Shown piece by piece: positions 12,111 to 35,932 of a stretch of DNA of 64,000 nucleotides. Below the pieces are notes generated by a model. The model ran no database searches. It had not been told where the DNA came from and saw only the letters and a list, made by a program, of their open reading frames with translations. The position numbers and the translations under genes are program-made. Numbering within the stretch: position 1 is the first letter of the stretch; each line of letters opens with the position of its first letter. Origin of the DNA: an uncultured archaeon (GTDB taxonomy: Archaea > Thermoplasmatota > Thermoplasmata > Thermoplasmatales > Thermoplasmataceae); the NCBI GenBank assembly GCA_000965745.1, contig CP009479.1, positions 1,632,001 to 1,696,000 of the forward strand. Reading direction: 5' to 3'.

Positions 12111-13019
12111 CTAAAGGAATCTTATCCTCGTCTCAAGTTCTCCAACCTGTTCAATGCCGGCCTGAACAAGATCTCCATCCTTGAGGTATTCCCCAGTCAT
12201 GGACCCGTTTTTCAAAGGTGTTCCGGTCGATATTATGTCCCCCGGCTCAAGGGTAATTCCTTTTGAAATGTATTCAAGGAGGGCCGGGATCTTGTGGGTG
12301 ATTGTATCTGTTCTTGCGCTCTGCTGTGTCTTGCCGTTTATGCGTACCTTGATCTCAAGATTATAGGGGTCCTTTACCTCGTCCTTTGTGACCATCCATG
12401 GACCCATCGGGGCTGCATTGTCCAGATTCTTCAGTCTCAGCCAGTTGACTTTGTGAATCGGTGAAGGGTGAGCCCTAAGGTCCCTGAAACTGAAATCATT
12501 CATCACTGTGTAGCCTGCCACACAGTCCATCGCTTCATCTTTTGAGACATCCTTGCATCTTTTCCCTATCACGAGCGCCAGTTCAATCTCATTGTCAGGC
12601 TGCCTTGAATATTCCGGAACGTTGACGGTCCCTTTATGGCCCAGAAGGCCGTTTGGAAGTTTTATGAAAACATAAGGCTCCTGCGGGGGTTTAGCCCCGG
12701 GCTCCGGTGCATGGGAGCTGTAGTTTATTCCCACCATCAGCATCTTGCTTGGCTTCAGAACAGGCGGAAGATACTCAATATTTCCCTCCTGGACGATGCA
12801 GGACTGTTCATTTCCATTCCTGCCCTCAAGAAGCTTCTTGAGGATTTCAAACGCATGCTCTCCACCTTTGAGAAGACAATCAACTGAATCGAACCAGTCC
12901 GGCGCATTTGATGCATATCTGGTCTCGAACAGTTTCCTGACATCCAGCAATTCTCCATTTTTGAACGTTCCAAGCCGTGGGCTGGAATTCTCTGTATATC
13001 TGTAATTCAGCAGCTTCAT
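12111..13019 (-). CDS. Fumarylacetoacetate hydrolase family protein
   Basis: VGINYSSH, EIELALVIGK, GYTVMNDFSFRD, GPWMVT, TLEPGDIISTGTP. Confidence 0.93.
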   Translation of the reverse strand: MKLLNYRYTENSSPRLGTFKNGELLDVRKLFETRYASNAPDWFDSVDCLLKGGEHAFEILKKLLEGRNGNEQSCIVQEGNIEYLPPVLKPSKMLMVGINYSSHAPEPGAKPPQEPYVFIKLPNGLLGHKGTVNVPEYSRQPDNEIELALVIGKRCKDVSKDEAMDCVAGYTVMNDFSFRDLRAHPSPIHKVNWLRLKNLDNAAPMGPWMVTKDEVKDPYNLEIKVRINGKTQQSARTDTITHKIPALLEYISKGITLEPGDIISTGTPLKNGSMTGEYLKDGDLVQAGIEQVGELETRIRFL

Positions 13020-13240
13020 TTTCCGTCCCTTCTGAGAGTATTATCGTGCACTGTATTAGAAATTTACCATTATGCAATTTTTTCCGGAACAAATGTGGAG
13101 CATGACGTAAAGTGGGCATTTCCTCACGTAATGATACGAGAACGGATTTTTGTGTAATGCCTTATCAGGCATATCACAGATAATTGTGCATTGCCTCCGG
13201 CGTGCAAAATATATTTAGATATAATGTATGAGGGATTTAG

Positions 13241-14341
13241 GTGGGTTATTCGGAAGACAGTGCAAAGCAGGAAAAACGTTCTATTGACAGAAGGCTGATA
13301 CTTTTCTTTGCGGTTAACATATCTGTTACTGCTCTACTATTCCTGGTTCTTTTCGGAATCTCATCCACATTCACTGCAGGAACAAAAAAAATAATTCTTT
13401 CCTCTGGCATAATCACTTCAAATTTCATTTACCTTGGAGTCCTCGCTCTGCTTTTCGGCTTGAGGCATTCAGTGGATGCAGACCACATAGCTGCAATAGA
13501 CACGTCTACTAGAAAGCTCATAAATGAGGGAAAACGTTCCGAATTTGCTGGATTCTTCTTCAGCATGGGCCACTCCACCGTGGTATTCGCGCTGTCGGTT
13601 TTACTCATGACATCCACAAGGTACGTTACCAGCCACCTGCCCAGCTTAGAGACCCTGGGGTCAGTCATAGGGCCTCTTGTCAGTTCAACCTTCCTATTCA
13701 TAATGGCTGCGATAAACCTATCCATTCTATTCGGACTACGTGCCATTTTCCACAGGGCCCTCAAAGATGACGACGCCGGGAGATTGAGCATTGATGATTT
13801 AATAGGCAGAATGGGGATACTCAACAGAGTACTGAAAGGCCTTTTTTCTTCAGTGAAGAGCCAGGCATATCTATACCCCATAGGCCTTCTGTTCGGGCTT
13901 GGTTTCGACACCGCCTCTGAAGTGGTAGTTTTATCCATTTCAGCTACTCTTGCCGGACTTTTCGTCCATGTTCCACTATACGTTCTTCTCATATTCCCTG
14001 CATTCTTCACTCTTGGAATGACCCTTATTGACACGACTGACGGGTATATGATGTTCAGAGCCTACAGATGGGCATTTTCGGATCCGGTGAAGAAACTCTG
14101 GTATAACATGGTGCTCACAGCTGCCTCAGTCGCCTTTGCAGTTCTGGCAGGCGGCTTCGAGATCATATCCACAGTTACGGGATATTTTGGCCTCAATGGT
14201 TTTCCGTGGGCATTTTTTGAATCGGTATCCAACACCTACTGGTACGTTCTTGGAATTCTCATAATCTCGGTATTTGTTGTCATAGGTCTGCTCTCATACA
14301 TGAGGTATAGAAAGTACCTGGTTTCGAGGACAACCAGTTAG
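13241..14341 (+). CDS. HoxN/HupN/NixA-family high-affinity Ni/Co permease (NiCoT)
   Basis: GLRHSVDADHIAAID, FSMGHSTVV, GLLFGLGFDTASE, GMTLIDTTDG. Confidence 0.93.
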   Translation: MGYSEDSAKQEKRSIDRRLILFFAVNISVTALLFLVLFGISSTFTAGTKKIILSSGIITSNFIYLGVLALLFGLRHSVDADHIAAIDTSTRKLINEGKRSEFAGFFFSMGHSTVVFALSVLLMTSTRYVTSHLPSLETLGSVIGPLVSSTFLFIMAAINLSILFGLRAIFHRALKDDDAGRLSIDDLIGRMGILNRVLKGLFSSVKSQAYLYPIGLLFGLGFDTASEVVVLSISATLAGLFVHVPLYVLLIFPAFFTLGMTLIDTTDGYMMFRAYRWAFSDPVKKLWYNMVLTAASVAFAVLAGGFEIISTVTGYFGLNGFPWAFFESVSNTYWYVLGILIISVFVVIGLLSYMRYRKYLVSRTTS

Positions 14342-14479
14342 CGCCTTCTGATACTGGTTTAATCAGCGCGTCTGATCTTCAACTGCAAGTTGTTGCGTAG
14401 ACTGTTCCATTAATAAGGTATTTTTATCGCAAAACTTCCTGAAAACAAAATTTATCTATAACTCCCTTCTATCAAAATT

Positions 14480-15580
14480 ATGAACAGCAAGCTGGAAGAG
14501 TTGGCGAAGAGGTTTGAAAAGGAGCGAAAACCTACATACTACCAGGATTGGGTCAGGAAGGAGGGGCTGCGCATCATTTCTGGCCATTACATTTACGATC
14601 TCAGGGACGTTGAGCTTGACCCCTGGGAAAGAAGGGGAGGTTCAGCAGTTTTCATAAACCATGAAGATTCCCACAATTCAAATGACTGCTATATCTGCGA
14701 AATTCCACCGGAAGGGCAGCTGAAACCACAGAGGCAGCTCTATGAAGAGATGATCTACGTCCTGGATGGGCAGGGCGCAACTAGAGTGTGGAATGATGCG
14801 GGTGACAAGGTATCTTTCGAATGGCACTCTGGATCCCTTTTTGCCATTCCGCTAAATTCATGGCACGAACATTTCAACACATCAGGGAAGAGGCCTGCCA
14901 GATTCATTTCCGTCACCAATATGCCGGTCGTCATGAACCTGTTCGAGGATGACGATTTTGTCTTTAACACCAAGTTTGATTTCAAGAGCAGATTTTCCGG
15001 CCGATCCGACTACTATGATGCAAAAGACCAGCCGGAAGGTTTCTTCCTTGACACTAACTTTGTACCGGATGTAAGGACGTTGAAGCTTGTTAATGCAAAG
15101 GAGAGAGGAGCCGGCGGAGGTCACATAAGATTTAATCTTGCCAGGGGAACGATGAACAGCCATATCTCGGAATACCCTGTGGGGACTTACAAGAAGGCAC
15201 ACAGGCACGGACCGGGTGCACACGTGGTGATTCTCAGCGGCCAGGGGTACACCCTGATGTGGCCGGAGGGTGAGGAAATAAAGAAATACCCTTGGAAAGA
15301 AGGAAGTATGGTAGTTCCTCCAAACCTGTGGTTCCATCAGCATTTCAATACAGGACCACAGCCTGCCAGGTACCTTGCCTTGAAATATGAGGGAACCGCC
15401 ATAAGGAATGAACTGGGAATACCCAAAGCCTGGATAAGCACCAAGCTTGGTGGTGACCAGCTTGACTACTCAGACGAGAGTACCGAGATCAGAAAGATGT
15501 TTGAGGAGGAGCTGAGAAATAACAATGTTGAATCAAAAATGGCACCTTTCTATGCAAAGGAACTGGAGGAGAGCTCCTGA
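14480..15580 (+). CDS. Bicupin of unknown function
   Basis: Domain 1 PQRQLYEE...PLNSWHEHFN (first two His replaced by Gln); domain 2 AHRHGPG...PPNLWFHQHFN. Confidence 0.85.
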   Translation: MNSKLEELAKRFEKERKPTYYQDWVRKEGLRIISGHYIYDLRDVELDPWERRGGSAVFINHEDSHNSNDCYICEIPPEGQLKPQRQLYEEMIYVLDGQGATRVWNDAGDKVSFEWHSGSLFAIPLNSWHEHFNTSGKRPARFISVTNMPVVMNLFEDDDFVFNTKFDFKSRFSGRSDYYDAKDQPEGFFLDTNFVPDVRTLKLVNAKERGAGGGHIRFNLARGTMNSHISEYPVGTYKKAHRHGPGAHVVILSGQGYTLMWPEGEEIKKYPWKEGSMVVPPNLWFHQHFNTGPQPARYLALKYEGTAIRNELGIPKAWISTKLGGDQLDYSDESTEIRKMFEEELRNNNVESKMAPFYAKELEESS

Positions 15581-15605
15581 AATTTCATCAGGCTGTGCAA
15601 CTTAA

Positions 15606-17084
15606 ATGAGCAATGAGGATCCCCCGACATTCGCCATACAGCATGATGAGGGTTGGGACATAGATTCGGTGAAACTCACCACAATTGGCATAGACATAGG
15701 GACTTCCAGCACCATTGTATCTGTGGCCTCCCTTAGCATGAAGAGGATGGCGCGAGACCTTTCCAGCCAGTTCACTGTTGTATCGAGGCGCGAGAATCAT
15801 GGTTCCAGGATAATGTTCACACCCTATACCGGTGACGAACGAATAGACGGAGATGCTCTTAAAAAGATGATTGATGAATTCTATTCGGAGCATGGTGTCA
15901 GGCCTGACGATGTCGACACCGGTGTGGTTATTCTCACGGGCGAAGCTTTGCTGAAGAAGAACTCTGAAGCGGTTGCCAATATTGTATCTCTTGGAAGGGG
16001 CAGGTTCGTGACCATAGCCGCCGGGCACCTGATGGAAGCCACTCTTGCAGCATTCGGCTCAGGGGCTGTTGAACTCTCAAAGAAAGAGGGAAAACGCATT
16101 CTGAATATTGATATTGGCGGTGGAACCACTAAACTCTCAGTTATTGAGAACGGTGAGATCGAGTCCGTCCAGGCAGTTCGTGTGGGTGGGCACACCATAG
16201 TGAGGGGGCCTGATGGAAGAATCACACGCATAGAGGAATCGGGGAAGGCAGTTCTTGAATGGCTCGGTTATGAATCAAATCCAGGAGATCTGCTGGATGA
16301 TGGAGCAATGGAAAAAGTGTCAGAATTCCTCGCACACTCCTTATTTGATGCCATTTTTGACGCAAAGAGTAATGACATAATCCCGGATTTCACACTCACG
16401 CCCTTAAGTGCTCCTCCCGGGAAAGATGTTGATGCTTTTGTAGTTTCAGGCGGCGTGGGTGAACATTTCTACGACCCGGATACCGAAGATTTTGGGGACC
16501 TCGGGAAAGGAATTGCCACGGTTCTCAGAAAAAGGCTTTCGGAGAGTGATATCAGCATCATGAGGCCGGATCACTGCATCCGGGCAACAGTAATGGGGCT
16601 GTCCCAGTACACCGCTCAAATCAGCGGAAGCACAGTCTATGTTTCGGATGAGAATGCACTTCCGCTCTTCAATATCAGAACGGTCAAAATCGAGGCGGAT
16701 CTCATCGGAGATATTGACAGTGAAAAGTTGAGGCAGAGAATCAAGGAAAGAACGGAGATGTTCGAAGTTGATGTTTCAAGCCCGTTTGCTATGTTTTTTC
16801 ATTGGGATGGAGCCCCCTCCTACAGAAGGCTGAGGGCATTCTGCGAGGGCATAATCAGGTTCGTCGGCTCAATTGATGAAGGGGCCCCGCCACTTATTCT
16901 GATCTTCGATGAGGACGTTGCTTGGATAATCGGAGATATGTTAAAAAGTGAGATGGGAGTAAGGCGAAAGGTTGTCTGCGTGGATGGAGTTTCCCTTGGA
17001 GATCTGGAATTCATAGATATTGGCAGCAAGATATATCCTGCGGGTGTACTTCCCCTGACGGTAAAATCACTCCTCTTCCATTAA
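15606..17084 (+). CDS. EutA-like ASKHA-fold ATPase (ethanolamine ammonia-lyase reactivase family)
   Basis: IGIDIGTSST, DTGVVILTGEA, FVTIAAG, LNIDIGGGTT, SGGVGE, IRATVMG, FIDIG...LPLTVKSLLF. Confidence 0.88.
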   Translation: MSNEDPPTFAIQHDEGWDIDSVKLTTIGIDIGTSSTIVSVASLSMKRMARDLSSQFTVVSRRENHGSRIMFTPYTGDERIDGDALKKMIDEFYSEHGVRPDDVDTGVVILTGEALLKKNSEAVANIVSLGRGRFVTIAAGHLMEATLAAFGSGAVELSKKEGKRILNIDIGGGTTKLSVIENGEIESVQAVRVGGHTIVRGPDGRITRIEESGKAVLEWLGYESNPGDLLDDGAMEKVSEFLAHSLFDAIFDAKSNDIIPDFTLTPLSAPPGKDVDAFVVSGGVGEHFYDPDTEDFGDLGKGIATVLRKRLSESDISIMRPDHCIRATVMGLSQYTAQISGSTVYVSDENALPLFNIRTVKIEADLIGDIDSEKLRQRIKERTEMFEVDVSSPFAMFFHWDGAPSYRRLRAFCEGIIRFVGSIDEGAPPLILIFDEDVAWIIGDMLKSEMGVRRKVVCVDGVSLGDLEFIDIGSKIYPAGVLPLTVKSLLFH

Positions 17085-17103
17085 TTTCTTTTGAGAATCG
17101 AAA

Positions 17104-18327
17104 TCACTGGGCCCCGGCCACTTCCGCTTTATCCCGGGAGTTCTTTTCCTGGAGCTTGAGGAATGGAAGCAGAAGGGAAGCGGATAGCGTGAAAATAAGC
17201 ATTATCCAGAAAGAGAAATAGAGGCTTTCCCTGTAGACAAGGAAGCTCGATAACGCAATGCCCGCTGCTCCGCCCAGAAATTGCCCGACGCCCCACACAA
17301 TTCCACCCGAAGAGGTTGAAATTTCCTTTGGGACGACCTGATTAAGATAGCCAAGAAGCGTTGGGAAACCACTGTAGGTGAAAAATGCATAAATGGAGAA
17401 GAAGAGTGCATCCAGTATCGCATTTGACCCCGACAGCAGGAGGAGGAAGAAGGCCAGCCCGGAGAATATAGTCGTCGTGGTAATTGAGAAAAACCCGCCT
17501 TTTCTCGTAGTCACAATTCCGAAGATGGTCTGCCCGGCTACTGGTGTTAAAACACCCATTGTAAAAATGAAAATTCCGAGAAACTGTGAATTTGTAACAT
17601 TGGCGAGATAGGAAGGCCCATAGGTAGCTACTGCCCTTATAACCATGGCCCTCAGGAAGACCACAGTCATCAGGGAAAATATGAACACCTTGAAAACTGA
17701 CATGTGCCCGGAGAGTGATTTCTTCTGCTTCCTGCCCCTTGATCTTGCAACGCCCTTAATCTTGGGCAATCCAAGGCTGACAAGAACAACAGCGGCGAAC
17801 GTGAAGCCGAGTGCCCACATTATGAACATGCCCTCTACCAGGCCGAATATTCCGATAAGGCCTGCAATTATCAATGGGAATATACCTCTCCCAAAACTTC
17901 CAAAAGAACCGTTTATTCCCAATATCATGGGAGTGTTTCTTCCGTATTCGGACCTTAGTATGCTGGAACCTATAGGGTGGTAGAATGACTGGCCGAAACC
18001 AAGAACTGTGACTCCAATTATGATGTAAAGGAATTCCAGGGTTCCATGCTGTACTGAAAATGCAAAGAAAAGTGCCGCCACTCCATTAAGTGCCAGTCCA
18101 AGTGCTATGAGGACACCCTTCCTCTCAAGTTTGTCTGCCAGTATTCCCACAGGGGTACTCATCGCGCCGGAAACTATCGGGTTCATTATGGCAAGGACTC
18201 CCAGAATTGCCAGATTTGTGGCGGGAAATTCCGTGTAAAGGAAGGTTATCAGTACAGGATAGAGAAATGTGCTGCCATCGTTGGCAAAATGAGCGAATGA
18301 TGTGATTCCAAATACTCTTTTTGACAC
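17104..18327 (-). CDS. MFS transporter (Fsr-like)
   Basis: FAHFAND, GILADKLERK, GFGQSFYHPIG; 12 TM segments. Confidence 0.88.
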   Translation of the reverse strand: MSKRVFGITSFAHFANDGSTFLYPVLITFLYTEFPATNLAILGVLAIMNPIVSGAMSTPVGILADKLERKGVLIALGLALNGVAALFFAFSVQHGTLEFLYIIIGVTVLGFGQSFYHPIGSSILRSEYGRNTPMILGINGSFGSFGRGIFPLIIAGLIGIFGLVEGMFIMWALGFTFAAVVLVSLGLPKIKGVARSRGRKQKKSLSGHMSVFKVFIFSLMTVVFLRAMVIRAVATYGPSYLANVTNSQFLGIFIFTMGVLTPVAGQTIFGIVTTRKGGFFSITTTTIFSGLAFFLLLLSGSNAILDALFFSIYAFFTYSGFPTLLGYLNQVVPKEISTSSGGIVWGVGQFLGGAAGIALSSFLVYRESLYFSFWIMLIFTLSASLLLPFLKLQEKNSRDKAEVAGAQ

Positions 18328-18431: not shown

Positions 18432-19049
18432 TCAGCTTTTCTGGGCTATTTTGGAACTTTCAAGAATTCTCTGGACTTCTGCAGAGTCGATCGTTTTGCC
18501 TTCCTGGTATTCGGGAGCATTCTCGATCTGTTCAAGGTCGTTGAGGCCACTGAATCTGTAAATCCTGTTTATGGCGGAAATTATTCTTAGAGGTTTGGTC
18601 TCTGATGAATTGAAGTGCTGATGGATTGTGTTTGGTGGTATGTAGACAACATCTCCCTGCCTCCAGTCGAACCTTTTCATCTCCCCCTGTGGGACAAATT
18701 CATACTTATCGGTTATCTCGACGTCACAGTCAACATGCTCGTCGTATCCCTTTCCTTCGAGTATGTAGAGGCACTCTTCAGCAAGATGCCTGTGTTTTCC
18801 TGACCTGCTGCCAGGAGGTATGATCTGCATGTAGACATCCACGGTCTCCATGAGGGTATCCATCTGGGAATTGATCATGTGCTTCAATATGCCCTGGGGT
18901 GCCAGTTCCCATGGCATTTCGATGGGCTTTACGACTCTCTTTTTTCCTTTGCTGTTCTCTGGCCTGTCCCTCGACTCATCGAGAAGACCTCTGTAGAAGT
19001 TGGCAGTCTGGTTCCCACTGAGCCATGTCTTGCTCTCTCCCCATGCCAT
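18432..19049 (-). CDS. Cupin domain protein
   Basis: SGKHRHLAEECLYILEGKGY...GDVVYIPPNTIHQHFN; start coupled to the upstream stop (TAATG). Confidence 0.88.
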   Translation of the reverse strand: MAWGESKTWLSGNQTANFYRGLLDESRDRPENSKGKKRVVKPIEMPWELAPQGILKHMINSQMDTLMETVDVYMQIIPPGSRSGKHRHLAEECLYILEGKGYDEHVDCDVEITDKYEFVPQGEMKRFDWRQGDVVYIPPNTIHQHFNSSETKPLRIISAINRIYRFSGLNDLEQIENAPEYQEGKTIDSAEVQRILESSKIAQKS

Positions 19050-19606
19050 TACTCACCACCTTCCTGGTCCGGGTCGGCGTCTTCCCTTGGCTCATATCCT
19101 ACTCCGTTTTCGGTAGGCTCAGTTGGCCTTGGAATAACAGTCTTCTGGAACAGCATATTCATGAACATGTACATTGGCTTGGTCTTTATGACAAGTGCAC
19201 GAGCCGGTTTCTCAGTATCCGCGTTATTGTGCTGGTGAACGCAATTGTTGGGAACAATGGCGACATCCCCCGCCTCCCAGTCATATCTTTCCCCGTCATG
19301 TATCTCATAGCCTTTTCCATCCAGTATGTAGAATGATGCCTCATTTACATGGCCATGCTTCTGGGATTTCCCTCCGGGAGAATATTCTTCCAGGTGGATG
19401 TGAAGTGTTTGGCCAAGCCCGTCAACAGGCTCAATATAATGCTTGCTGAATGTCTGGGGCCCGTCAACGAATTTGATTTCCTCTGCCCTCCTCACTCTTG
19501 GCAAAGACCTAAGTCTTTTGAGTTCTTCCTTAAGATTGTATTCGCCAGATATGGCTCTCACGAATACTCGGTCCTTCTTGCTGTGATAATGAGATTCAGT
19601 TCCCAT
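19049..19606 (-). CDS. Cupin domain protein
   Basis: SQKHGHVNEASFYILDGKGY...GDVAIVPNNCVHQHNN; AGGAGGTG RBS. Confidence 0.88.
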   Translation of the reverse strand: MGTESHYHSKKDRVFVRAISGEYNLKEELKRLRSLPRVRRAEEIKFVDGPQTFSKHYIEPVDGLGQTLHIHLEEYSPGGKSQKHGHVNEASFYILDGKGYEIHDGERYDWEAGDVAIVPNNCVHQHNNADTEKPARALVIKTKPMYMFMNMLFQKTVIPRPTEPTENGVGYEPREDADPDQEGGE

Positions 19607-19728: not shown

Positions 19729-20499
19729 TTACTCTTTTGCAACATTCCATCTGGTGAGGTATTTCTCCAACTGCAGCAATGCAAGGTTAATAGCAATACT
19801 GATGAGCGCGACTGCCGATACCACCACGTATAATTTTATCGGTTGAATGGTGTTTGCAAAGTGAGCTGCTAGGTCCCCTACACCCGATGAGCCGGCCCAT
19901 TCCTCTGCAATCAAGACACCACCCAGCGTGAGGTTGAACGAGAGTCTGGCAGCACTGAGAATGCTCGGAAATACGTTTGGCAGCATGAGCTTCAGCTGGA
20001 GTTGAAGGGAACTGGCACCGAGTGATCTTGAGAGCCTTACGAGATTGGGGTCTACGTTGCTTACAGTATACATCGTAGTTATGAGTACGGGAAACATTCC
20101 GCTGATGAACCCGAAAAAGAACTCATAGCTGAAACCGTATCCAAGCAGGACAGAGAACAGTGTCACGAACATTACCCTCGGGATCGAATTAGCAAGGACA
20201 AGGTAAGGCTCCAGAACCTTTCTCAGATACAGGACCTCTCCTATTATCATACCCAGGGCGGCACCTGCCGCTACCGTACTTACAAACGCTGAAAGCACTA
20301 TCCCCAGGGAATATATGATCTGCGAGTAAATGGAGGGCGTGCCAATAATCGATGCGAAGTGCGTCACAGTATCAATTGGGGAACTGAGCAGTGGGTGAGG
20401 TACTATATTGGCTGAGTAAATGTACTGCCATATAGAAAAGAAGATTGCGAAAGCAAGTATTTGAAGGCCTACGATAATGGCGGTTTTCCTAATGAGCAT
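19729..20499 (-). CDS. NitT/TauT-family ABC transporter permease
   Basis: Six TM segments; EAA-like loop LSRSLGAS; LIAEEWAGSSGVG. Confidence 0.9.
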   Translation of the reverse strand: MLIRKTAIIVGLQILAFAIFFSIWQYIYSANIVPHPLLSSPIDTVTHFASIIGTPSIYSQIIYSLGIVLSAFVSTVAAGAALGMIIGEVLYLRKVLEPYLVLANSIPRVMFVTLFSVLLGYGFSYEFFFGFISGMFPVLITTMYTVSNVDPNLVRLSRSLGASSLQLQLKLMLPNVFPSILSAARLSFNLTLGGVLIAEEWAGSSGVGDLAAHFANTIQPIKLYVVVSAVALISIAINLALLQLEKYLTRWNVAKE

Positions 20500-21271
20500 A
20501 TGGCATCACCAACCTCTCAATTATGGCCAAAGCTACCAGTATCCCAGCGACTATCAATACCAATATGATTATTACCGAAAACATGAGTCCAGGGTCAAAA
20601 CTTCCAGAACTTATGCTTATCACACTTCCCAGACCATTCTCTGAAGCGATCACCTCGGCAAAAATAACGCCGATGATGGAAAAGACGAGAGAGATCCTTA
20701 TGCCAGCAAGTATGGCGCCAGCCGATGATGGTATCATGACTTTCGAAAATATCTGTGCGTTCGAAGCACCATAAGACTGCGCCAGCCTGATGTATGACTG
20801 CTTGGTCCTTCGTATGCCCGAAGAGACAATTATGATCGAAGGAAAAATTGCAAGAAATATTGCAATCGCTATCCTTGATGCTGGGTCAATCCCTAGTGTC
20901 AGGTACATAACAGGGTAGAGTATTGGCCCTGGTATTGAATAGAGCACATACACTATGGGTTCGTAAGCCTGGCCGATGAGCTTGAAGTAACCGATGGCCA
21001 TACCGACAAATATCCCCAGGCTCGAGGCAATTGCAAATGCGACGAGTATCTCGAAGAGGGTAAGCTTGAACGGAACTATGATTCCGTGAGGATAATTCGG
21101 ATAGCTGCTTGGTGCCCCGAAATATGGCAGGAAAAGTCTGTGAAAAGAGAGAACCGTCTGGGTGAATCCTGTGAATACGAAGGGATTATCGTACAGGATG
21201 TGTGCCAGCTGCCATCCTAATGCAAATACAATGGGCACAGCTATTAAGCCGATGAGAACCTTAAGCTTCAT
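20489..21271 (-). CDS. NitT/TauT-family ABC transporter permease
   Basis: LAQSYGAS...KVMIPSS; IFAEVIASENGLG. Confidence 0.9.
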   Translation of the reverse strand: MKLKVLIGLIAVPIVFALGWQLAHILYDNPFVFTGFTQTVLSFHRLFLPYFGAPSSYPNYPHGIIVPFKLTLFEILVAFAIASSLGIFVGMAIGYFKLIGQAYEPIVYVLYSIPGPILYPVMYLTLGIDPASRIAIAIFLAIFPSIIIVSSGIRRTKQSYIRLAQSYGASNAQIFSKVMIPSSAGAILAGIRISLVFSIIGVIFAEVIASENGLGSVISISSGSFDPGLMFSVIIILVLIVAGILVALAIIERLVMPYAH

Positions 21272-22058: not shown

Positions 22059-22164
22059 TTAACTTCCACATCCTTTGAATATTTTAATAAAAAAAGGTAT
22101 TAATAATTGTTTGGGTCAAAACATCGTTGGACAGCGACCCAGTACTTTCTGATAATAATTATTA

Positions 22165-23465: not shown

Positions 23466-23496
23466 AATTATTATAAGATATAAGTGATCGTATAGC

Positions 23497-25815: not shown

Positions 25816-25878
25816 AAAATGCATAGATTTGTTTACAATTTTAAAAATTGAAATAAAGAGATAAAAATTGAATTACTC

Positions 25879-28299: not shown

Positions 28300-28301
28300 A
28301 A

Positions 28302-28856
28302 TTATGAACCTCCTGAATTTTTATTGTTCCTGTTTCCTGCTTCACTTCCGAAATTCGATGAGCTTGCCTCTTTAACTGCCTTGATTATGTTGAGGTACCC
28401 TGTGCACATGCAGAGATTTCCTGCCAGCCCTTTCCTTATCTCTTCTTCGGACGGGTGTGGGTTCTTTCCCAACAGATAAAGGGAAGACATCAGGAATCCA
28501 GGGGTGCAATAGCCGCATTGCAATGCATGGTTTCTGGCAAAGGATTCCTGCAGAGCGCTAAGATTGCCGTTGGAACTTATCCCTTCAACGGTGGTGACCT
28601 TTGTTCCATTCGCCCTCGCAGCGAGAACAGTGCAGGACTTGACGGATTTTCCGTCCATGAGGACCGTGCATGCTCCGCAGTTTGTCGTGTCACACCCTAC
28701 ATGTATGCCCTTGACGCCCAGATGGTCCCTCAAAAAGAAAGCGAGGAGAGACCTCGGCTCAACGTCAGCCTCTACCGGTACACCATTAAGCTCAAATTCC
28801 AGGTCGATTTTCTGTACACTCACTTCTTTCCTCTTTTTCCTTTGGGAAGAGATCAT
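28302..28856 (-). CDS. Molybdenum hydroxylase 2x[2Fe-2S] subunit
   Basis: GCDTTNCGACTV...KSC; QCGYCTPG...GNLCMCTGY. Confidence 0.95.
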   Translation of the reverse strand: MISSQRKKRKEVSVQKIDLEFELNGVPVEADVEPRSLLAFFLRDHLGVKGIHVGCDTTNCGACTVLMDGKSVKSCTVLAARANGTKVTTVEGISSNGNLSALQESFARNHALQCGYCTPGFLMSSLYLLGKNPHPSEEEIRKGLAGNLCMCTGYLNIIKAVKEASSSNFGSEAGNRNNKNSGGS

Positions 28857-29734
28857 TTCGTACCACCCCTTAACCTGTTCATTGCCTCAAGAAGAGCTCT
28901 CTTAACGTATTCGCTGCCCACCTCTTTCTTATATTCAGCACTCCCTCTGATTGCATCATCGAGTGGGTCCATATCGTCTCTTGAAGATTCAGCGGCGTCT
29001 GCTATGCTTTCTGGCGTGAGTTCCTTTCCGATAAGTGCCTTCTCGGCACTCTCTGACCTAATATTCGTCATTCCGAGTGAAGTCAACCCGATGCCCACAT
29101 ATTTGCATACATCCTGTTCATCAACTTTTAGCTGAACGGCTGCACCAAGAACAGCAAAATCCCCTGCCCGCCTTTCAAGTTTTGCATAAGTGCCGGAACT
29201 CCTTTCCCCGTAAACTGGAATAGTAACAGAAGATAGAATTTCGTCTTCTCCCAGGGCGGGCGTAAAACTGTCAACGAAGAAATCATCAGCCCTGATTTCC
29301 CTGCTTCCGTCCGAGCTCGACACTTGAACGGTACCTCTCATCGCTATCAACGCTGATCCCCAGTCACCTGAAGGGTCTGCGTGGCAAAGTCCACCTCCTA
29401 TGGTTCCCATGTTCCTGACCTGTTCGTCGCCTATATGGGAAGCAGTCTCTGACATCAGAAATGCTTTCTTCCGTATCAGGCCAGAAGCTTCAACTTCCCC
29501 GTGAGTAGCCAGTGCTCCAATTCTGATATGGCCCTTCTCTTCGGATATGTCGGCCAGCCCTTTTATGCCTGAAATGTCCACAATATGCTCAAACCTTGTC
29601 AGCCTTAGCTTGAGCACCGGTATGAGGCTCATACCGCCAGCCAGTACTTTCGACTCACCTGAATGCTTGCGAAGCAATTCAGATGCTTCCCCAATATTCT
29701 TGGGCGTGTAATATTGAAATTGTGCCGGATACAT
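28853..29734 (-). CDS. Molybdenum hydroxylase FAD-binding subunit
   Basis: MYPAQFQYYTP, LAGGMSLIP, VRNMGTIGG, ADPSGD, RRAGDFA. Confidence 0.95.
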   Translation of the reverse strand: MYPAQFQYYTPKNIGEASELLRKHSGESKVLAGGMSLIPVLKLRLTRFEHIVDISGIKGLADISEEKGHIRIGALATHGEVEASGLIRKKAFLMSETASHIGDEQVRNMGTIGGGLCHADPSGDWGSALIAMRGTVQVSSSDGSREIRADDFFVDSFTPALGEDEILSSVTIPVYGERSSGTYAKLERRAGDFAVLGAAVQLKVDEQDVCKYVGIGLTSLGMTNIRSESAEKALIGKELTPESIADAAESSRDDMDPLDDAIRGSAEYKKEVGSEYVKRALLEAMNRLRGGTK

Positions 29735-30031
29735 ATATTACATCACTCAAAGGGTATGTAGCAAGTGATTAATATTATTATCGACCCATACCGCATTAGA
29801 AAGAGTTTTATAAACAAAACTGTGGAAATAACCCCGAAAATTGGCCATAAGTGTAGCACACCCCGGACTCTGTCGCCTAATTCTCGTTTTTTCCAAAACA
29901 TGATGTGCTTTTGCCATTGAGCCGGCAAATACTGGCGTGCTAACTAATCCCGTATGGAGATAGCTATTAATTGATATAAAGAGTGCGCAATTTTAGAGAG
30001 AATAAATTTAATAACAAGTGCATATAGGTTT

Positions 30032-31036
30032 ATGGCAAACGTCCCAATAAGTCTAGCGATGGCAGACTATGATAGAACGAAAGCACTTATCGAAGGATTC
30101 CACAAGCCAGTCGGAATAGACCTTACATATGTCGTATCCCCACCATCGGAAACTTTCTGGAGAATGCTCAGATTTGCAGAGTTCGAGGCATCCGAAATGT
30201 CACTTTCAACCTTTCTGATTTCTAAATCCCAGGGCAGAAAATGGAAGGCAATACCCGTATTTCCTTTCAGGGGTTTTTTCCACACCAACATATTTGTATC
30301 AAGGAAGTCAAGTGTAAAAGAGCCCGAGGACCTGAAGGGAAAGAAGTTCGGTGTCCCTGAGTACCAGGTAACAGCAGCTGTCTGGCTGAGGGGAGCCCTC
30401 GAAGAAGATTTCGGGGTTGCACCTCAGGATATGACGTGGTACGTGGAACGCAAGAAAGGCCTCAGCCACGGCGGTGAAACTTCTTTCAAGCCTCCTGAAG
30501 GGGTTAAAATTGAGCAGGTTCCAGAGGGAGAAACGCTTGACTCAATGATAAGATCCGGGAAACTAGATGCCATAATGCCCAGCCCATATCCGGGCATGAA
30601 ATCGCTGTTGAATAAGACCGATTATCTGGAGCTGAGTAAATCGGATGAAGTCAGGCTGCTTTTTGATGACCCAGTGGAGGAAGGTAGGAGATTCTTCAAA
30701 AAGCATGGATATAGCCACATAAACCACACTGTGATAGTGAGGGATGATGTGGTAGAGAAGTATCCATGGGTCCCACTTAACCTCTATAAGGCCTTTGAAG
30801 AGTCCAAAATAATCTCAAACCAGAAACTTGACAAGATGATCAAATCTAGTCTAGTCTTCGGATTTCCATACCTGATGAAAGAGAGGGAGATATTCGGAGG
30901 AGATGCGTTTCCTTATGGTATGGACAGGAACAGGAAAGCTCTGGAAGAATTGGTTCAGATGTCGGTTAATCAAGGACTTACCTCTAAGCCCCTAGATCTG
31001 GATTCCCTCTTCTATGAAGATACGTTGAATGCTTAA
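30032..31036 (+). CDS. 4,5-Dihydroxyphthalate decarboxylase-like protein (periplasmic binding protein fold)
   Basis: DYDRT, ETFWRML..EFEASEMSLS, IPVFPFRGFFH, GVPEYQVTA, INHTVIVR, FPYG. Confidence 0.82.
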   Translation: MANVPISLAMADYDRTKALIEGFHKPVGIDLTYVVSPPSETFWRMLRFAEFEASEMSLSTFLISKSQGRKWKAIPVFPFRGFFHTNIFVSRKSSVKEPEDLKGKKFGVPEYQVTAAVWLRGALEEDFGVAPQDMTWYVERKKGLSHGGETSFKPPEGVKIEQVPEGETLDSMIRSGKLDAIMPSPYPGMKSLLNKTDYLELSKSDEVRLLFDDPVEEGRRFFKKHGYSHINHTVIVRDDVVEKYPWVPLNLYKAFEESKIISNQKLDKMIKSSLVFGFPYLMKEREIFGGDAFPYGMDRNRKALEELVQMSVNQGLTSKPLDLDSLFYEDTLNA

Positions 31037-31151
31037 TTCCTGACCATTTTTAACCAATTTTTTTTGTTATGCCCTATAATTGCTGATAAACTGAGTATAT
31101 TACAATATAGTGGTGAGGTAAATTTATAATATTTCTTGATATCAATCCTTT

Positions 31152-32210
31152 ATGGAACAAAAACTAACTGATCTACTGGAAGAACTGCCGAAGAATAACT
31201 ACAACACATATTATCAGTCTTCAGCAGGCAGGGGAAAACACAAGACAATAATGTCAACAATACCTTCACCCATAGCAGAACCCTTCAGTTGGGACTACGA
31301 AAGGACAAAAGAATTCCTCTACCGCCTTAGTGAAATCCTGACCCCGGAAGAAGCGGAAAGACTCAATATACAGTTTGAAAACCCATCGCTGAAAGACATA
31401 GTGCCTGCAGCCCTTGCACCTACCGTCAGGGGCGGAATACAGCTGCTGAAGCCAGGTCAGAAGGCACCAACTCATAAGCATTCCCCCAATGCCTTCAGGC
31501 TGATCCTGGAAGCTCCTGCCGATGATGCATACACTGTTGTTAACGGAGTGGAACTTCCAATGCACACCGGAGACCTCGTCCTGACCCCCAACTGGACGTG
31601 GCATGACCATCATAATGACAGCAGTGGCGACGTCATATGGTTTGACGGGCTTGACATAATATTTGTTTACTGGATAGGCGGTGTGTTTTACTCTCTGCCC
31701 AAAGGTGAGAAATCACCCAATACAGTTGCGGAGGACGGCAATGATAATTTCAACGAGTATGGAAGCGGGCTGGTACCTGACACAGTGCACGGAGAGCTCG
31801 ATTACGATCCGATGTTTTACTACCCGTATGAAAAGGCCAGGCAGGCCCTCGTGTCCCTTGCAAAGACAAGAACCGGGGAGAGCAGTGTGACCCTTGAATA
31901 TACAAACCCGATAACCGGGGGGCCTGTATTTCCCTCGATGGGCCTCAAGCTTACCATGGTGAGGGGAGGCAAGACGACTCCATTAATTCAAAGAACTGAA
32001 AACAAGGTCGTCATTTGCATGGAGGGCGAAGGAGAAATAACACTTTCATCAGGCAAAAAGATTGAGCTCAAATCTCACAACGTTGCAGTCATTCCTTCAT
32101 GGGAACAGCACCGGATAAGTTCAGGAAGTTCGGACCTTGTTCTGTTTACATATTCGGATGAGCCGATTTTCAGGGCCATGAAACTGTTTAGAGAGAACCT
32201 CTCTAAATAA
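31152..32210 (+). CDS. Gentisate 1,2-dioxygenase-like cupin (paralogue 2)
   Basis: GGIQLLKPGQKAPTHKHSPNAFRLILE, GDLVLTPNWTWHDH, WFDGLD, YTNPITGG, YSDEP. Confidence 0.9.
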   Translation: MEQKLTDLLEELPKNNYNTYYQSSAGRGKHKTIMSTIPSPIAEPFSWDYERTKEFLYRLSEILTPEEAERLNIQFENPSLKDIVPAALAPTVRGGIQLLKPGQKAPTHKHSPNAFRLILEAPADDAYTVVNGVELPMHTGDLVLTPNWTWHDHHNDSSGDVIWFDGLDIIFVYWIGGVFYSLPKGEKSPNTVAEDGNDNFNEYGSGLVPDTVHGELDYDPMFYYPYEKARQALVSLAKTRTGESSVTLEYTNPITGGPVFPSMGLKLTMVRGGKTTPLIQRTENKVVICMEGEGEITLSSGKKIELKSHNVAVIPSWEQHRISSGSSDLVLFTYSDEPIFRAMKLFRENLSK

Positions 32211-32239
32211 ACATATTTTCTTGAGCCATACTCCGTAGT

Positions 32240-33037
32240 TCACAAGGAATTCTTCTTCAGGAACCCGGAGATGGTTTCAGAGTAAAGCTCAGGAATGTCA
32301 TAGGAACAGAAATGGGCCGCGTTTTCAAAAATTTTCAGCTCCGATCCCTTTATCTCAGCATTCATTTTTTCCGACAGGGGCAGAGGTGTAAACGCATCCT
32401 CCCTTCCCACCATTATCAGCGTTGGCACATTGATTGTGGTCAGCAATTCGATATCGTCGGGTTTGTCGATCATTGCCTGAAGAGTTTCTTTTACCGCATC
32501 TTCCGTTATGTCAAGGCTAAGAAGCTTCATGCAGTCCATTACCCAGGGGCGGTCCTCACGTGTTTTTTCAGCCAGTCTTCTTGAAGTGTTCTCAACGAAC
32601 TTTCCCAGCCCGTTTTCCTCTATGAACCTTATCTGGCTTCTTCTCCTTTCCTTTATATCTTCGGAGTCCGGATCAGCTTTAGTTCCACTCAATACCAAAC
32701 CCGAGACTAATGAGCTATCCTGTTTCCATATTCTCAGGGCGACGTATCCGCCAAGAGAAGCGCCTATGATGCATACTTTATCGACACCAAGGTGTTTCAA
32801 CAAGGATATTGCGTCCCGGGCAAATTGGTCAATGTTGTGATTTTCTCTCTTGAAGCCAGATTGGCCATGACCCCTCAAGTCCATGGCTATGACCCTGTAA
32901 CCCTTGGAGCGGAAGTAGCTTAGCTGCTCAGACCACATTAGTTTAGACTGGTCGAAGCTATGCAAAAAAAGGAGGGCGTTTCCATTGCCTGAGTCGTAAT
33001 AAGATATGTCTACATCTCCAGTACTGAATGACGGCAT
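32240..33037 (-). CDS. Alpha/beta hydrolase (enol-lactonase/deformylase-like)
   Basis: LLFLH, DLRGHGQS, GASLGG nucleophile elbow, VGREDAFTP, NAAH. Confidence 0.9.
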   Translation of the reverse strand: MPSFSTGDVDISYYDSGNGNALLFLHSFDQSKLMWSEQLSYFRSKGYRVIAMDLRGHGQSGFKRENHNIDQFARDAISLLKHLGVDKVCIIGASLGGYVALRIWKQDSSLVSGLVLSGTKADPDSEDIKERRRSQIRFIEENGLGKFVENTSRRLAEKTREDRPWVMDCMKLLSLDITEDAVKETLQAMIDKPDDIELLTTINVPTLIMVGREDAFTPLPLSEKMNAEIKGSELKIFENAAHFCSYDIPELYSETISGFLKKNSL

Positions 33038-33128
33038 ACTTTGCAATATGATAGATTTATTAGAAATTATTGATTGATAGCTACTAAAATTTTCCTCATG
33101 TGCTGCTTCGCTGGAATGTCACCTGTCG

Positions 33129-34145
33129 CTAAAGCTCAATCTTCAAAAGACGCATAGCAGTCTTTGAAAAAAGGTTCTCAAGTGCTTCACCATCAAGCCC
33201 AAGGTGCTCAATAAGGCCGGGGTAATTGGCCATTCTGACTTTACCTCCATCCGGACCCCATGGATAATCCGTGGAGAAGATCATTTTTTCCTGGCCTACA
33301 ACGTCCAGGCCCAGCTTGAGTGCGGAAAGGTTTCCGCCTATAGCTGTGTCATAATAGAAACTGTCCAGGTAGTCTTTGGGGTTATACCCCTCTACTCCAT
33401 AGGACTCTCCCCTGACATTCAATACCTTGGACGCTTTGGAATCGTACGATTCCTGTATTCTGCCGATCATATACGGAATTACGCCCCCGAGATGGTGCGT
33501 TATGATCTTCAAGCTGGGAAATTTCGAAAGTATGCCGGACAGCATGAGCCGCATCCAGATAAGGCCCGTTTCATAGGGCCAACCGAGAACATGCATAAGA
33601 TCATATTCCTGCTCATAGCTGCGGCTGTTTTTCCCATATGTATCCACCGGATGTATATAGACTGGGACATCCAGCTTCGCAGCCCTTTCCCACGCTAGCC
33701 CAAAGTTGTCAACTGGCACCCCGCAGGCATTTGTTGGAACCATGAATCCCTTAAGGCCCAGTTCCCTGATTGCACGATCCATTTCTTCAAGACCGCCCTC
33801 TTCCAGAGAGTTAAGCGGAATGCTTCCTACGCCCATAATTCTTCCATGGGTATCCGATTCCAGTGCACTGATCTCGTCATTAATTACCCGGACAAGCCTT
33901 AGATTTTCCTCATTAGTAAGCTCGAAAGTGTTTGGCTCGATGATGCTGTGCACCATGGTCACCTGGGCCGCAAACCCAAACTGATCCATCTCCTTGATCC
34001 TGAATTCGGGGTCAATGAAACTCTTATTTTGTGAAGAGAGGTCCATAACGTGTCTTGCTTCGGCAACAGCAGACCCGTTCTTGACAGTACTGAGCTCTTT
34101 CACATAATTTGGAGGTGTCCAGTGAGTGTAAGCATCTAAAATCAT
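33129..34145 (-). CDS. Amidohydrolase_2-family protein (ACMSD-like decarboxylase/hydratase)
   Basis: ILDAYTH, PVYIHP, GWPYET, ITHHLGG, FYYDTA, FSTDYPW; ATG at 34145. Confidence 0.88.
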   Translation of the reverse strand: MILDAYTHWTPPNYVKELSTVKNGSAVAEARHVMDLSSQNKSFIDPEFRIKEMDQFGFAAQVTMVHSIIEPNTFELTNEENLRLVRVINDEISALESDTHGRIMGVGSIPLNSLEEGGLEEMDRAIRELGLKGFMVPTNACGVPVDNFGLAWERAAKLDVPVYIHPVDTYGKNSRSYEQEYDLMHVLGWPYETGLIWMRLMLSGILSKFPSLKIITHHLGGVIPYMIGRIQESYDSKASKVLNVRGESYGVEGYNPKDYLDSFYYDTAIGGNLSALKLGLDVVGQEKMIFSTDYPWGPDGGKVRMANYPGLIEHLGLDGEALENLFSKTAMRLLKIEL

Positions 34146-34312
34146 CAGACCACGAATATCCTGAAAAATATTAAAATGTGGCATGTGGAAAATGATGTCC
34201 TTTCACCCAAGCATTTTATCTTGATATGCGGCGTATTTCAAAAAATGATCAAGGATTCATAGCAATAAAAAAGGGGACCTCAAATGGGTCCACCTTAAAA
34301 GTTTCCAGAGGA

Positions 34313-35656
34313 TTAATTTGCCACTATTTCCTCCTTATAAGTCTCCTTGATGAAGAACAGAGCCATCAAAGCCACAATGTTCAGTCCGGCCATAAGCAAG
34401 CCAATGTATGGCCAGGCATGCGAAGGACCATGCAGAAGGGACAGAATAGCGGGAGCTGCCACAGCTGTCACAAGACCGGCGAGCAGCTGCCCAAAGTTGT
34501 AGCTCAAAGTCACCCCGGAATACCTGACCCTTGAGGCAAACTGTTCAGCGAACAGGGAAGCCACTATGGCTATCTGTACACTGGCAGTTCCGTACATTAT
34601 GATTTCGTCAATTATCAGCAGGGGCAGCGTCGGTTTCACCGATAGGATGTACAGATACGGAACGGACCATATGATTACGAGAATCATGCCCAGCCTCATA
34701 GCTAAAAGCCTGCCTTTCCTGTCCGCAAGCTGTCCCGCGAAGACCTTGATTATTATGCCGACAATGGCAGCAATACCGAGGGCAAAAAGCGCATAGATAG
34801 GCGACAATCCCTGGCTTGCAATAAAACCTGGCGTGAATGCAGCCAGTTCAAATATTGCACCTGCTGAGGCCGCCTGAACAACCATCAGAACAATGATTTC
34901 CTTCCAGTGCGATTTAAAGACCTTCAGTGCAGGGAGGCTCTCTGTTCTTTTAGTTTCCTGAAGTTCCGAGAATATCTTAGTATCGGTGATCTTGAGGCGT
35001 ATGATCAGGGCAGCAATTATTCCAAGTGCCCCTATGTAAAAGAGTATTCTCCATCCCTGAGTGAATACATAACTGTGAGGAAGAGAGGTGATCATGAAGA
35101 ACAATATCAATGCAGGGGCTGTAACGCTTGCGGATTGTCCTATGCCAAGTGCGCTTCCCCACAAACCTCTTCTCTTTGATTTGGCAGCACTCTCCACGAT
35201 CCATGCTCCATCCCCGACCATTGTTCCAATACCCATTCCTGCAATGAACCTGAAGACTATCAGCAATATGATACTGGTCACTCCCAGAACGGAGAAGCCA
35301 GGGAGCAAAGAAATGCCTATTGCACCTGCTGCAGTGGTACCTAATGCAACTGCACCGACATTTCTCCTGCCACTTGTATCTCCATACTGGCCGAATATGA
35401 AAGCTCCGATAATTCCAGCCACATACCCTACTACATACGTGCTGAGACCCAGAAACAGGCCCAGATCAGGCGCTACGCTAGGAAAAAACAGACTCGGCCA
35501 TATTATACCGGAAACAAGTGCAGATGCTATGTTGTTGTAGTTGTGGAAAAATATGCTGACGAAAGACCCTCCAGTCGTTCTCCACGTACTGCTGTACTTA
35601 TACTTTTCAGTTCGCCCACTATCAAAGGCGTCCCCGGAAACATCCTGATTTTTCAG
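34313..35656 (-). CDS. MFS transporter (metabolite:H+ symporter type); start codon uncertain
   Basis: FGQYGDTSGRR, GWRILFYIG, LFAEQFASRVRYSG; the frame stays open 78 codons upstream of the called GTG and encodes TM1-2 (...WPSLFFP...). Confidence 0.8.
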   Translation of the reverse strand: MKNQDVSGDAFDSGRTEKYKYSSTWRTTGGSFVSIFFHNYNNIASALVSGIIWPSLFFPSVAPDLGLFLGLSTYVVGYVAGIIGAFIFGQYGDTSGRRNVGAVALGTTAAGAIGISLLPGFSVLGVTSIILLIVFRFIAGMGIGTMVGDGAWIVESAAKSKRRGLWGSALGIGQSASVTAPALILFFMITSLPHSYVFTQGWRILFYIGALGIIAALIIRLKITDTKIFSELQETKRTESLPALKVFKSHWKEIIVLMVVQAASAGAIFELAAFTPGFIASQGLSPIYALFALGIAAIVGIIIKVFAGQLADRKGRLLAMRLGMILVIIWSVPYLYILSVKPTLPLLIIDEIIMYGTASVQIAIVASLFAEQFASRVRYSGVTLSYNFGQLLAGLVTAVAAPAILSLLHGPSHAWPYIGLLMAGLNIVALMALFFIKETYKEEIVAN

Positions 35657-35932
35657 ATAAGTTCACCGGAAACCGTATCGACCAGTATTATTAAATATTA
35701 TTCTTCTAAAATTTTATTAGCCTTATGTTGTTCAAATGAAGCATGAAGGACATGCATATCCAAAGTTCTGTGGCTATTCTTCCCACTATCATGCTGCTTT
35801 TGGTGCAGGTACCTCCAACAAGCAAGTATTAAATATTTGAAAACACATTAATTGTTTAACTACGGGACTGAACTGTATAGCACTCACCCTCGCAAGTTGA
35901 AGGGACAGTAACCGTACTTGAAAGGGAATAGT

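Follow-up and report, generated by a model that had tools for sequence, protein, structure and literature searches.

A conserved archaeal gene island pairing a bicupin with an EutA-like ATPase and its possible role in the breakdown of aromatic carboxylic acids

Introduction

Several bacterial routes for aromatic and N-heteroaromatic acids provide the closest comparison for the locus studied here, a 23.5-kb gene island at positions 12111-35666 of a 64,000-nucleotide stretch (hereafter the window) from an uncultured archaeon of the Thermoplasmataceae (contig CP009479.1, positions 1,632,001 to 1,696,000). Xanthine-oxidase-family enzymes hydroxylate the carbon next to a ring nitrogen, or oxidise aldehydes or furoyl-CoA; NitT/TauT importers carry phthalate; and PicC, the decarboxylase of picolinate catabolism, is of the amidohydrolase type. 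HbzF of the gentisate route is presumably an FAH-family enzyme. According to a title cited in PMC5658364, it hydrolyses maleylpyruvate directly. Picolinate breakdown by the pic cluster of Alcaligenes faecalis JQ135 depends on PicB, a monooxygenase, together with maleamate amidohydrolase and maleate isomerase (bioRxiv 10.1101/530550), and lumichrome breakdown by the cluster of Nocardioides simplex involves a P450 along with Rieske and catechol dioxygenases (PMC12746152). The nicotinate nic cluster is a further point of comparison.

Thermoplasmatales are generally regarded as peptide and sugar scavengers, and in the limited literature searched we found no aromatic or heteroaromatic ring-cleavage pathway described for them. 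The island is a compact, defined gene set for testing ring cleavage in this order. It lies in a single-contig genome of 2.23 Mb that is 99% complete, and the host is presumably acidophilic, judging from its membership of the Thermoplasmatales. We propose that the island serves to take up an aromatic (di)carboxylic acid, most probably N-heterocyclic, and to degrade it aerobically, with the help of a bicupin assisted by an ATPase; we give this proposal as a whole about an even chance of being right.

Comparison with described pathways

An earlier note on this DNA, made from the letters alone, had inferred a new ring-degradation route, one that should not match a described pathway one-to-one. This agrees with our comparison, in which none of the pic/nic, gentisate, phthalate, lumichrome and dipicolinate routes maps onto the island. 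The same note saw the logic of picolinate and nicotinate degradation. The order of reaction types does fit: the pic/nic routes combine a three-subunit dehydrogenase for the first hydroxylation with a decarboxylase, a ring-cleavage dioxygenase and a deformylase-type hydrolase, and a three-subunit molybdenum (Mo) dehydrogenase is present in the island at the family level. However, the PicB monooxygenase, maleamate amidohydrolase and maleate isomerase are not in the island, and isochorismatase-family genes occur only in a partner cluster elsewhere in the genome. Unlike in the pic/nic routes, ring cleavage would be performed by cupins resembling gentisate 1,2-dioxygenase (GDO), and a protein resembling the 4,5-dihydroxyphthalate decarboxylase PhtD, an FAH-family enzyme and a module of cupins, EutA-like ATPase and NiCoT permease are extra. 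Overall, the island resembles the pic/nic routes at its front and the gentisate route at its back, and lacks defining features of both.

The gentisate/salicylate 1,2-dioxygenase pathway with HbzF is similar in having two GDO-family cupins with three histidine ligands, an FAH enzyme and no isomerase. Since direct maleylpyruvate hydrolysis is known, the absence of an isomerase is no gap. In contrast to that pathway, both island cupins score far below the cut-off, no gentisate-forming enzyme is encoded in the island and further cupins are present. The phthalate 4,5-dioxygenase pathway (OphA/B/C-type, PhtD; PDB 7fhr, 9jp7) shares the PhtD-fold decarboxylase and the NitT/TauT importer, whereas the island has no Rieske oxygenase, cis-diol dehydrogenase or protocatechuate dioxygenase, carries the Mo enzyme instead, and encodes only a distant PhtD-like protein. 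The large lumichrome cluster (PMC12746152) likewise brings together decarboxylation of a heterocycle, hydroxylation by an enzyme of the xanthine-oxidase type, and hydrolases; the riboflavin/lumichrome route was rejected, as P450, Rieske and catechol dioxygenases are all absent from the island. The dipicolinate route was also rejected, as DipD is a monooxygenase and not a cupin.

Conservation of the island among archaea

The span holds 21 genes (Table 1). The 19 genes that had been named before were each found in place by family or domain profiles and homology matches. Their description as serving uptake or catabolism throughout was inexact, because an ISL3 insertion sequence (IS) element and the NiCoT nickel/cobalt permease had been omitted from the count. 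The island also extends beyond the right border first given for it, to the CBS/Zn-ribbon gene, a candidate regulator.

We compared this genome (G000) with one of the same genus (G001), one of another Thermoplasmatales genus (G010), a further relative (G002) and other archaeal assemblies. Between 16 and 19 of the 20 non-IS island genes are also found in G001, G010 and GCA_975958275. The G001 island has nearly the same order at 56-90% identity, without the IS, NiCoT and the second MFS transporter (MFS2) and with an additional SDR and a thiamine-pyrophosphate (TPP)-type enzyme; the G010 island has all genes except NiCoT, in shuffled order and at 34-74% identity. Nearly all island genes, up to the locus edge, are present in the SRR31309758 locus, most of them in a Nitrososphaerales genome and part of them in Sulfolobus sp. 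E11-6. The islands of G000 and G001 occupy different chromosomal sites. Within the class the bicupin occurs in only 3 of 401 genomes, this one included, and the EutA-like gene has a full-length match in 2 of 60 relatives. The island is thus patchily distributed in Thermoplasmata and nearly whole wherever it is found. Because the gene set is kept in independent archaeal genomes despite shuffling, beyond what chance would produce, the island is one real, coherent and conserved catabolic unit, apparently uncharacterised. Unrelated, non-syntenic origins of its genes, which the earlier note had named as evidence that would count against it, are not what we see, because a near-complete set recurs in other archaeal islands.

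The island of GCA_975958275 carries NiCoT at its edge (61% identity) and an insertion (L135:14731-18745) encoding a MaoC hydratase, a CitE-type lyase, a CoA transferase and an acyl-CoA dehydrogenase. This set of four is reminiscent of itaconate/mesaconate (C5-dicarboxylate) catabolism and could point to a ring product with a methyl branch; the CitE-type lyase and CoA transferase of this island were not found in G000.

A bicupin paired with an EutA-like ATPase

The most novel part of the island is the pair formed by the bicupin and the EutA-like ATPase, which could be a new enzyme class; the earlier note had missed this pair as the unusual core of the island. In the N-terminal barrel of the bicupin, which is degenerate, glutamine replaces the first two histidine ligands, and in the C-terminal barrel His241, His243 and His286 are invariant. 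Its best fold matches are GDO (3bu7; Z 20.1, root-mean-square deviation 4.9, 285 aligned) and salicylate 1,2-dioxygenase (SDO; 2phd, Z 19.4), tied with vicilin (Z 19.1). The ATPase resembles EutA, the reactivase of the B12-dependent ethanolamine ammonia-lyase, in its PF06277 match over the whole length and its ASKHA nucleotide-binding motifs. However, it scores 262 bits against 598 at best for an EutA equivalog cut-off and lies below all EutA cut-offs, and a fold search returned Ppx, MreB and PilM matches that indicate no specific function. EutB (PF06751) was not found in the 99%-complete genome, with a positive E. coli control, nor in four of five bacterial carriers of the pair. The genome holds two proteins with a B12-binding domain.

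Unlike EutA, the protein is associated with a bicupin, and the two have diversified together. Among 59 bacterial loci, each 14 kb or longer, the bicupin lies within 10 kb of the EutA-like gene in 53 and within 600 bp in 38; monocupin S2 accompanies them in 18 loci, a PhtD-like gene in 17 and NiCoT in 14. The island bicupin is 59-66% identical to the main bacterial clade. Three divergent bicupin clades are each mirrored by their own EutA clade, some within one genome, in a comparison that uses a quick version of the EutA tree. Two or three paralogous bicupin/EutA pairs stand side by side in some bacterial loci (L039, L025, L030, L063, L081, L017), and such multi-pair loci include those of Aromatoleum toluclasticum and Caulobacter sp. 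S45. Histidine-rich ends, another difference from EutA, are common in this family, with at least 4 His per 20-residue window in 98 of 120 homologues. Such tails recall nickel metallochaperone ATPases, and NiCoT is linked not only in bacterial loci but also in this and one other archaeal island; together, the His-rich ends and the NiCoT link suggest metal handling by the ATPase, although the copy studied here has no such tail and two sister islands are devoid of NiCoT.

Structure prediction gave the bicupin-ATPase complex a score of 0.67, compared with 0.00 for the best of three controls. In calibration, 58 of 80 solved complexes attained the mark used for this score, as did 2 of 110 mismatched pairs; the calibration is rough here because our own alignments were used. 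The runs share at least 76% of contacts, and the partner pLDDT is at least 78. The predicted contact joins residues 77-80, 98-100, 112-114 and 130-137 of the degenerate bicupin barrel with residues 403-409 and 436-449 of the ATPase C-terminal domain. A sequence search of the PDB found no similar complex. The prediction thus supports binding of the EutA-like ATPase to the bicupin via the degenerate N-terminal barrel.

The same tight pairing and predicted complex would fit equally well if the EutA-like protein were a catalytic subunit, forming with the bicupin an ATP-dependent lactam or amide hydrolase of the hydantoinase/oxoprolinase kind. The ASKHA domain would then phosphorylate the carbonyl of a pyridone-type Mo product, and the cupin metal would activate water. 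In anaerobic indole and indoleacetate catabolism, an ATP-dependent lactam hydrolase is known to act after a Mo-hydroxylase, and the EutA-like ATPase has a weak Hydantoinase_A match (E 2e-4). However, it is the C-terminal domain of the ATPase and the degenerate barrel that are predicted to touch, not the nucleotide cleft and the metal barrel; the His-rich tails and NiCoT indicate metal handling; many bacterial loci carry a Rieske enzyme and not a lactam-forming Mo enzyme; and the pair scores above the cut-off for neither hydantoinase subunit. We consider such a hydrolase distinctly unlikely. We found no paper linking EutA with cupins or PhtD in catabolism, in a search outside which most subscription literature fell. 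A plasmid search for characterised relatives of the bicupin and the Mo enzyme was uninformative, with four distant bicupin matches (37%) and Mo matches of about 35%.

Catabolic enzymes, a partner cluster and the substrate

The Mo enzyme belongs to a small orthogroup of 37 matches at E <= 1e-200, mostly 55-87% identical, with no characterised member. Its nearest named relatives are mostly archaeal, and one homologue is automatically labelled 2-furoyl-CoA dehydrogenase. Aerobic CO dehydrogenase (CoxL) was rejected, as the active-site loop reads PNRGVG and not AYRCSFR and the score is 479 bits against a cut-off of 991. Other loci of the orthogroup encode UbiD/UbiX, a TPP enzyme, a class II aldolase and OCD/mu-crystallin proteins. 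Three of them (L096, L097, L139) carry PhtD-type, UbiD, TPP, amidohydrolase, OCD/mu-crystallin and luciferase-like genes, with a class II aldolase in two; they have up to five decarboxylase-type families per cluster and no cupins within 10 kb.

Both GDO-like cupins keep the HxH...H three-histidine site in the N-terminal barrel and score below the TIGR02272 gentisate 1,2-dioxygenase cut-off (Table 1). The PhtD-like protein forms an island-specific subfamily, with 64-80% identity among islands and 33-37% to the bacterial type, and the bacterial-type paralogue is closer to 9jp7 (E 2e-89) than the island protein is. In many bacterial versions of the system, the place of the archaeal Mo enzyme is taken by a phthalate-dioxygenase-family Rieske oxygenase (18 loci; 9ina E 1e-89, 7fhr E 2e-81) along with a Zn dehydrogenase and a decarboxylase of the PhtD type. 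By analogy, this set points to an aromatic dicarboxylate as the substrate.

The earlier note had reported that transcription-factor, Rieske, flavin-monooxygenase, maleylpyruvate isomerase and XdhC families are missing, and within the span we indeed obtained zero matches to them. These absences are only local, since XdhC and an HpaB/HpaC flavin monooxygenase are encoded elsewhere in the genome. Ring-hydroxylating Rieske large subunits and the mycothiol-type maleylpyruvate isomerase domain were not found in the genome, glutathione-S-transferase-type isomerases not having been searched for. The monooxygenase lies in a second catabolic cluster 1 Mb away (G000:C1:641714-670880), so that the enzyme thought missing does exist in the genome. 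This cluster encodes HpaB/HpaC, DUF2848, a class II aldolase, two isochorismatase-family amidases, a cyclase, four UbiD, UbiX, an amidohydrolase, a Mo enzyme (S/M/L) and three MFS transporters. In G010 it follows the island directly, HpaB orthologue included, and in G001 the island sits between genes that in G000 flank the second cluster, beside HpaC and UbiX genes. The island is therefore probably half of a heteroaromatic cluster of about 50 kb, of which the earlier note missed the other half with its flavin monooxygenase and isochorismatase-family amidases. Linkage of the two halves is not obligatory, because an HpaB orthologue was not found in G001 (best match 26%), where the island is present, and no EutA-like, bicupin or GDO gene of the island was found in G002, which has the orthologue. 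The genome as a whole encodes seven or more large subunits of the xanthine-oxidase family and several UbiD paralogues, which suggests a specialist in (hetero)aromatic acids.

On the contents of the Mo-orthogroup loci and the amidases of the partner cluster, we moderately favour an N-heteroaromatic carboxylate as the substrate. The substrate might also be carbocyclic (phthalate-, hydroxybenzoate- or naphthoate-like) or an O- or S-heterocycle: the Mo enzyme would only oxidise an aromatic aldehyde or a furoyl-type CoA ester, HpaB/HpaC would hydroxylate the ring, and a gentisate-type route with direct hydrolysis would follow. The bacterial relatives do resemble phthalate-type systems, the 2-furoyl-CoA dehydrogenase label is of this kind, the GDO-like and FAH enzymes fit a gentisate route, and the HpaB orthologue adjoins the island in G010. 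We nevertheless regard this as unlikely. The matches to phthalate enzymes are at the family level only, the island encodes no CoA ligase, the HpaB orthologue and the tested island genes occur apart in G001 and G002, and the amidases, cyclase and imine-reductase-like neighbours suggest nitrogen.

A proposed route and its weighing

For an N-heteroaromatic acid, a route can be drawn in which every step is inferred from family chemistry. The substrate would be imported through the ABC (ATP-binding cassette) and MFS transporters. The first hydroxylation would need no oxygenase, the Mo enzyme placing a water-derived oxygen on the carbon beside the ring nitrogen, and the PhtD-like and ACMSD-like proteins would remove carboxyl groups non-oxidatively from the hydroxylated rings. 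Histidine-ligated cupins, namely the two GDO/SDO-like enzymes, the S1/S2 pair (probably a split bicupin) and the bicupin, would open the ring or rings; an ortho-hydroxy acid might be cut directly, as by salicylate 1,2-dioxygenase. Since there are four cupin systems, the substrate may be bicyclic, or the island may act as a funnel for several related acids. The alpha/beta hydrolase and the FAH protein would split the products without an isomerase, the latter probably catalysing the last C-C hydrolysis, on a 2,4-diketo acid. The EutA-like ATPase, sitting on the degenerate N-terminal barrel, would most likely use ATP to load or exchange the catalytic metal of the bicupin, which may be Ni or Co, as the permease suggests. 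The second cluster (G000 642-671 kb) could add the flavin monooxygenase, UbiD decarboxylases and amidases. A bolder version is doubtful: that this island is the archaeal version of a ring-degradation route that is widespread but undescribed, in which a Ni/Co bicupin requiring a dedicated, docked EutA-type ATPase for metal insertion or exchange represents a new maturase/reactivase-cupin class, coupled in archaea to oxygenase-free Mo activation of an N-heteroaromatic acid.

A number of observations weigh against the proposed route. Every NCBIfam score of a catalytic subunit lies under its cut-off, the closest plasmid Mo homologues are about 35% identical, and by sequence no gene is near enough to a characterised enzyme for the substrate to be named. 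The bicupin fold matches oxalate decarboxylase, GDO/SDO and vicilins about equally, so that dioxygenases and non-oxygenases are not separated. This copy of the EutA-like protein has no His-rich end, and conservation at the predicted interface is near average (0.70 vs 0.67; 0.67 vs 0.63). The G001 and G010 islands lack NiCoT, and a search of the whole G010 genome did not find it either. A second PhtD-type gene, present in four other islands, is absent from this genome, and the pathway may therefore be incomplete here. Intergenic DNA of three islands yielded no shared operator motif above the AT-rich background, and sub-modules occur separately elsewhere, with GDO, hydrolase and FAH genes together in Gammaproteobacteria and the Mo enzyme without nearby cupins.

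The last two observations would also fit a hot-spot in which niche selection has brought together modules that serve different acids (cupin/EutA; GDO/hydrolase/FAH; Mo/PhtD; ABC), and several of the decarboxylase and cupin paralogues would be redundant for one monocyclic substrate. On the other hand, the combination is retained, though reordered, in two genera of Thermoplasmatales, in a further two assemblies and in Nitrososphaerales, and genes of different modules are interleaved. Separate modules are quite improbable in our estimation.

Origin and significance

The EutA/cupin core family is mostly bacterial, and its archaeal copies group together among bacterial ones. In unrooted trees of modest support, the EutA tree being the quick version, the archaeal grouping is supported at 96/72 for the bicupin (four rows), 97 SH-aLRT for EutA (five) and 95/96 for monocupin S1 (four). 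Alicyclobacillus and Paenibacillus are the nearest bacteria in the S1 tree (82/95), and the S2 tree gives no resolution. This pattern would agree with a transfer from bacteria, after which archaea kept the genes patchily or passed them on among themselves. A partly bacterial origin had been suspected in the earlier note; the cupin/EutA module belongs to a mainly bacterial family, and the closest named relatives of the Mo enzyme are mostly archaeal. GC content was rejected as a sign of recent transfer, as the island (0.466) does not differ from the genome mean (0.464, standard deviation 0.017).

Uncultured bacteria from soil and groundwater carry the core pair very frequently, and their database annotations assign it to ethanolamine utilisation. 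We counted 6,713 EutA-family matches among 8,000 scored candidates, a number that may include true EutA. Cultured carriers are Alicyclobacillus dauci, A. herbarius, Paenibacillus thalictri, Pusillimonas caeni and Marinobacter algicola. If an ASKHA reactivase has indeed been repurposed from a B12 enzyme to a cupin, this would be new enzymology and many annotations would be corrected.

Gene inventory and flanking features

Table 1. Features of the island, with positions in the window.
Feature	Position	Strand	Evidence and remarks
FAH-family hydrolase/decarboxylase	12111..13019	-	PF01557 E 5e-63; in 5/6 other archaeal islands examined
NiCoT Ni/Co permease	13241..14341	+	PF03824 (NicO) E 2e-72, TIGR00802; co-oriented with and upstream of bicupin
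Bicupin	14480..15580	+	C-terminal barrel with invariant H241, H243, H286
EutA-like ASKHA ATPase	15606..17084	+	PF06277 E 1e-97; GIDIG 28, DIGGG 169, SGGVGE 281
MFS transporter 1	17104..18327	-	PF07690
Monocupin S1	18432..19049	-	HRHLAEE...HQH; one-base overlap with S2
Monocupin S2	19049..19606	-	HGHVNE...HQH
NitT/TauT-type ABC importer, two permeases and ATPase	19729..22058	-	Profile matches
ISL3 insertion	22165..23465	+	In divergent promoter; 8-bp duplication at 22157-22164 and 23466-23473
GDO-like cupin dioxygenase 2	23497..24570	+	TIGR02272 137 bits (cut-off 442); HRH 110, WHEH
ABC substrate-binding protein, NMT1/SsuA-like	24728..25789	+	Profile matches
Xanthine-oxidase-family Mo-hydroxylase, M-S-L subunits	25879..29734	-	Loop PNRGVG; catalytic Glu in GIGEG
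4,5-Dihydroxyphthalate-decarboxylase-like (PhtD-like) protein, binding-protein fold	30032..31036	+	9jp7 E 2e-55
GDO-like cupin dioxygenase 1	31152..32210	+	TIGR02272 234 bits (cut-off 442); PDB 2d40 E 2e-51; HKH 108, WHDH
Alpha/beta hydrolase	32240..33046	-	GASLGG nucleophile elbow, Asp and His motifs
Amidohydrolase_2, ACMSD/LigW-like decarboxylase or hydratase	33129..34184	-	Profile and homology matches
MHS-type MFS transporter 2 (MFS2)	34313..35666	-	Open frame from ~35662, no standard start
CBS pair with C-terminal Cys4 Zn-ribbon motif	35933..36451	+	PF00571; in islands of G001, G010, SRR31309758

The NiCoT permease is the sole copy in the genome. The ligands of monocupin S1 are degenerate in some homologues, and S2 is 68-88% identical to most of its bacterial homologues. 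The ISL3 element consists of an ISL3 transposase gene and terminal repeats, flanked by the AT-rich duplication AATTATTA. It has three more genomic copies at 99.5-99.7% identity, its transposase carries a 1-nt deletion near the 5' end, and the insertion is absent from the other archaeal islands compared. MFS2 shows no in-frame ATG, GTG or TTG across the first ~60 conserved codons, and the frame of a GTG at 35666 is shifted by one base. Conservation starts at about 35608 (72% over 431 amino acids to the G010 orthologue), so the anomaly is either a 1-nt frameshift, a sequencing error or a CTG start.

Further to the left in the window, a cysteine-rich open reading frame (ORF) of 287 amino acids at 5111-5974 has a Zn-finger-like motif at its N-terminus, and an IS3-family element with two overlapping ORFs (helix-turn-helix and integrase core) lies about 2 kb from the island at 8912-10107. 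The immediate left flank (10457-12069) contains a hemerythrin-domain gene and a prephenate dehydratase gene, which were not found at other island loci. To the right, two ORFs of 417 and 1161 amino acids (39956-44935) have no NCBIfam match at the thresholds used, and the former has no Pfam match either. Cytochrome bd oxidase subunits I and II are encoded nearer the island at 36568-39166. The apparent N-terminus of the CydA ORF is lengthened by a non-autonomous repeat of ~276 bp (36526-36800), which has eight further long copies in the genome (75-97%), one at ~5982-6257 and two within the second cluster.

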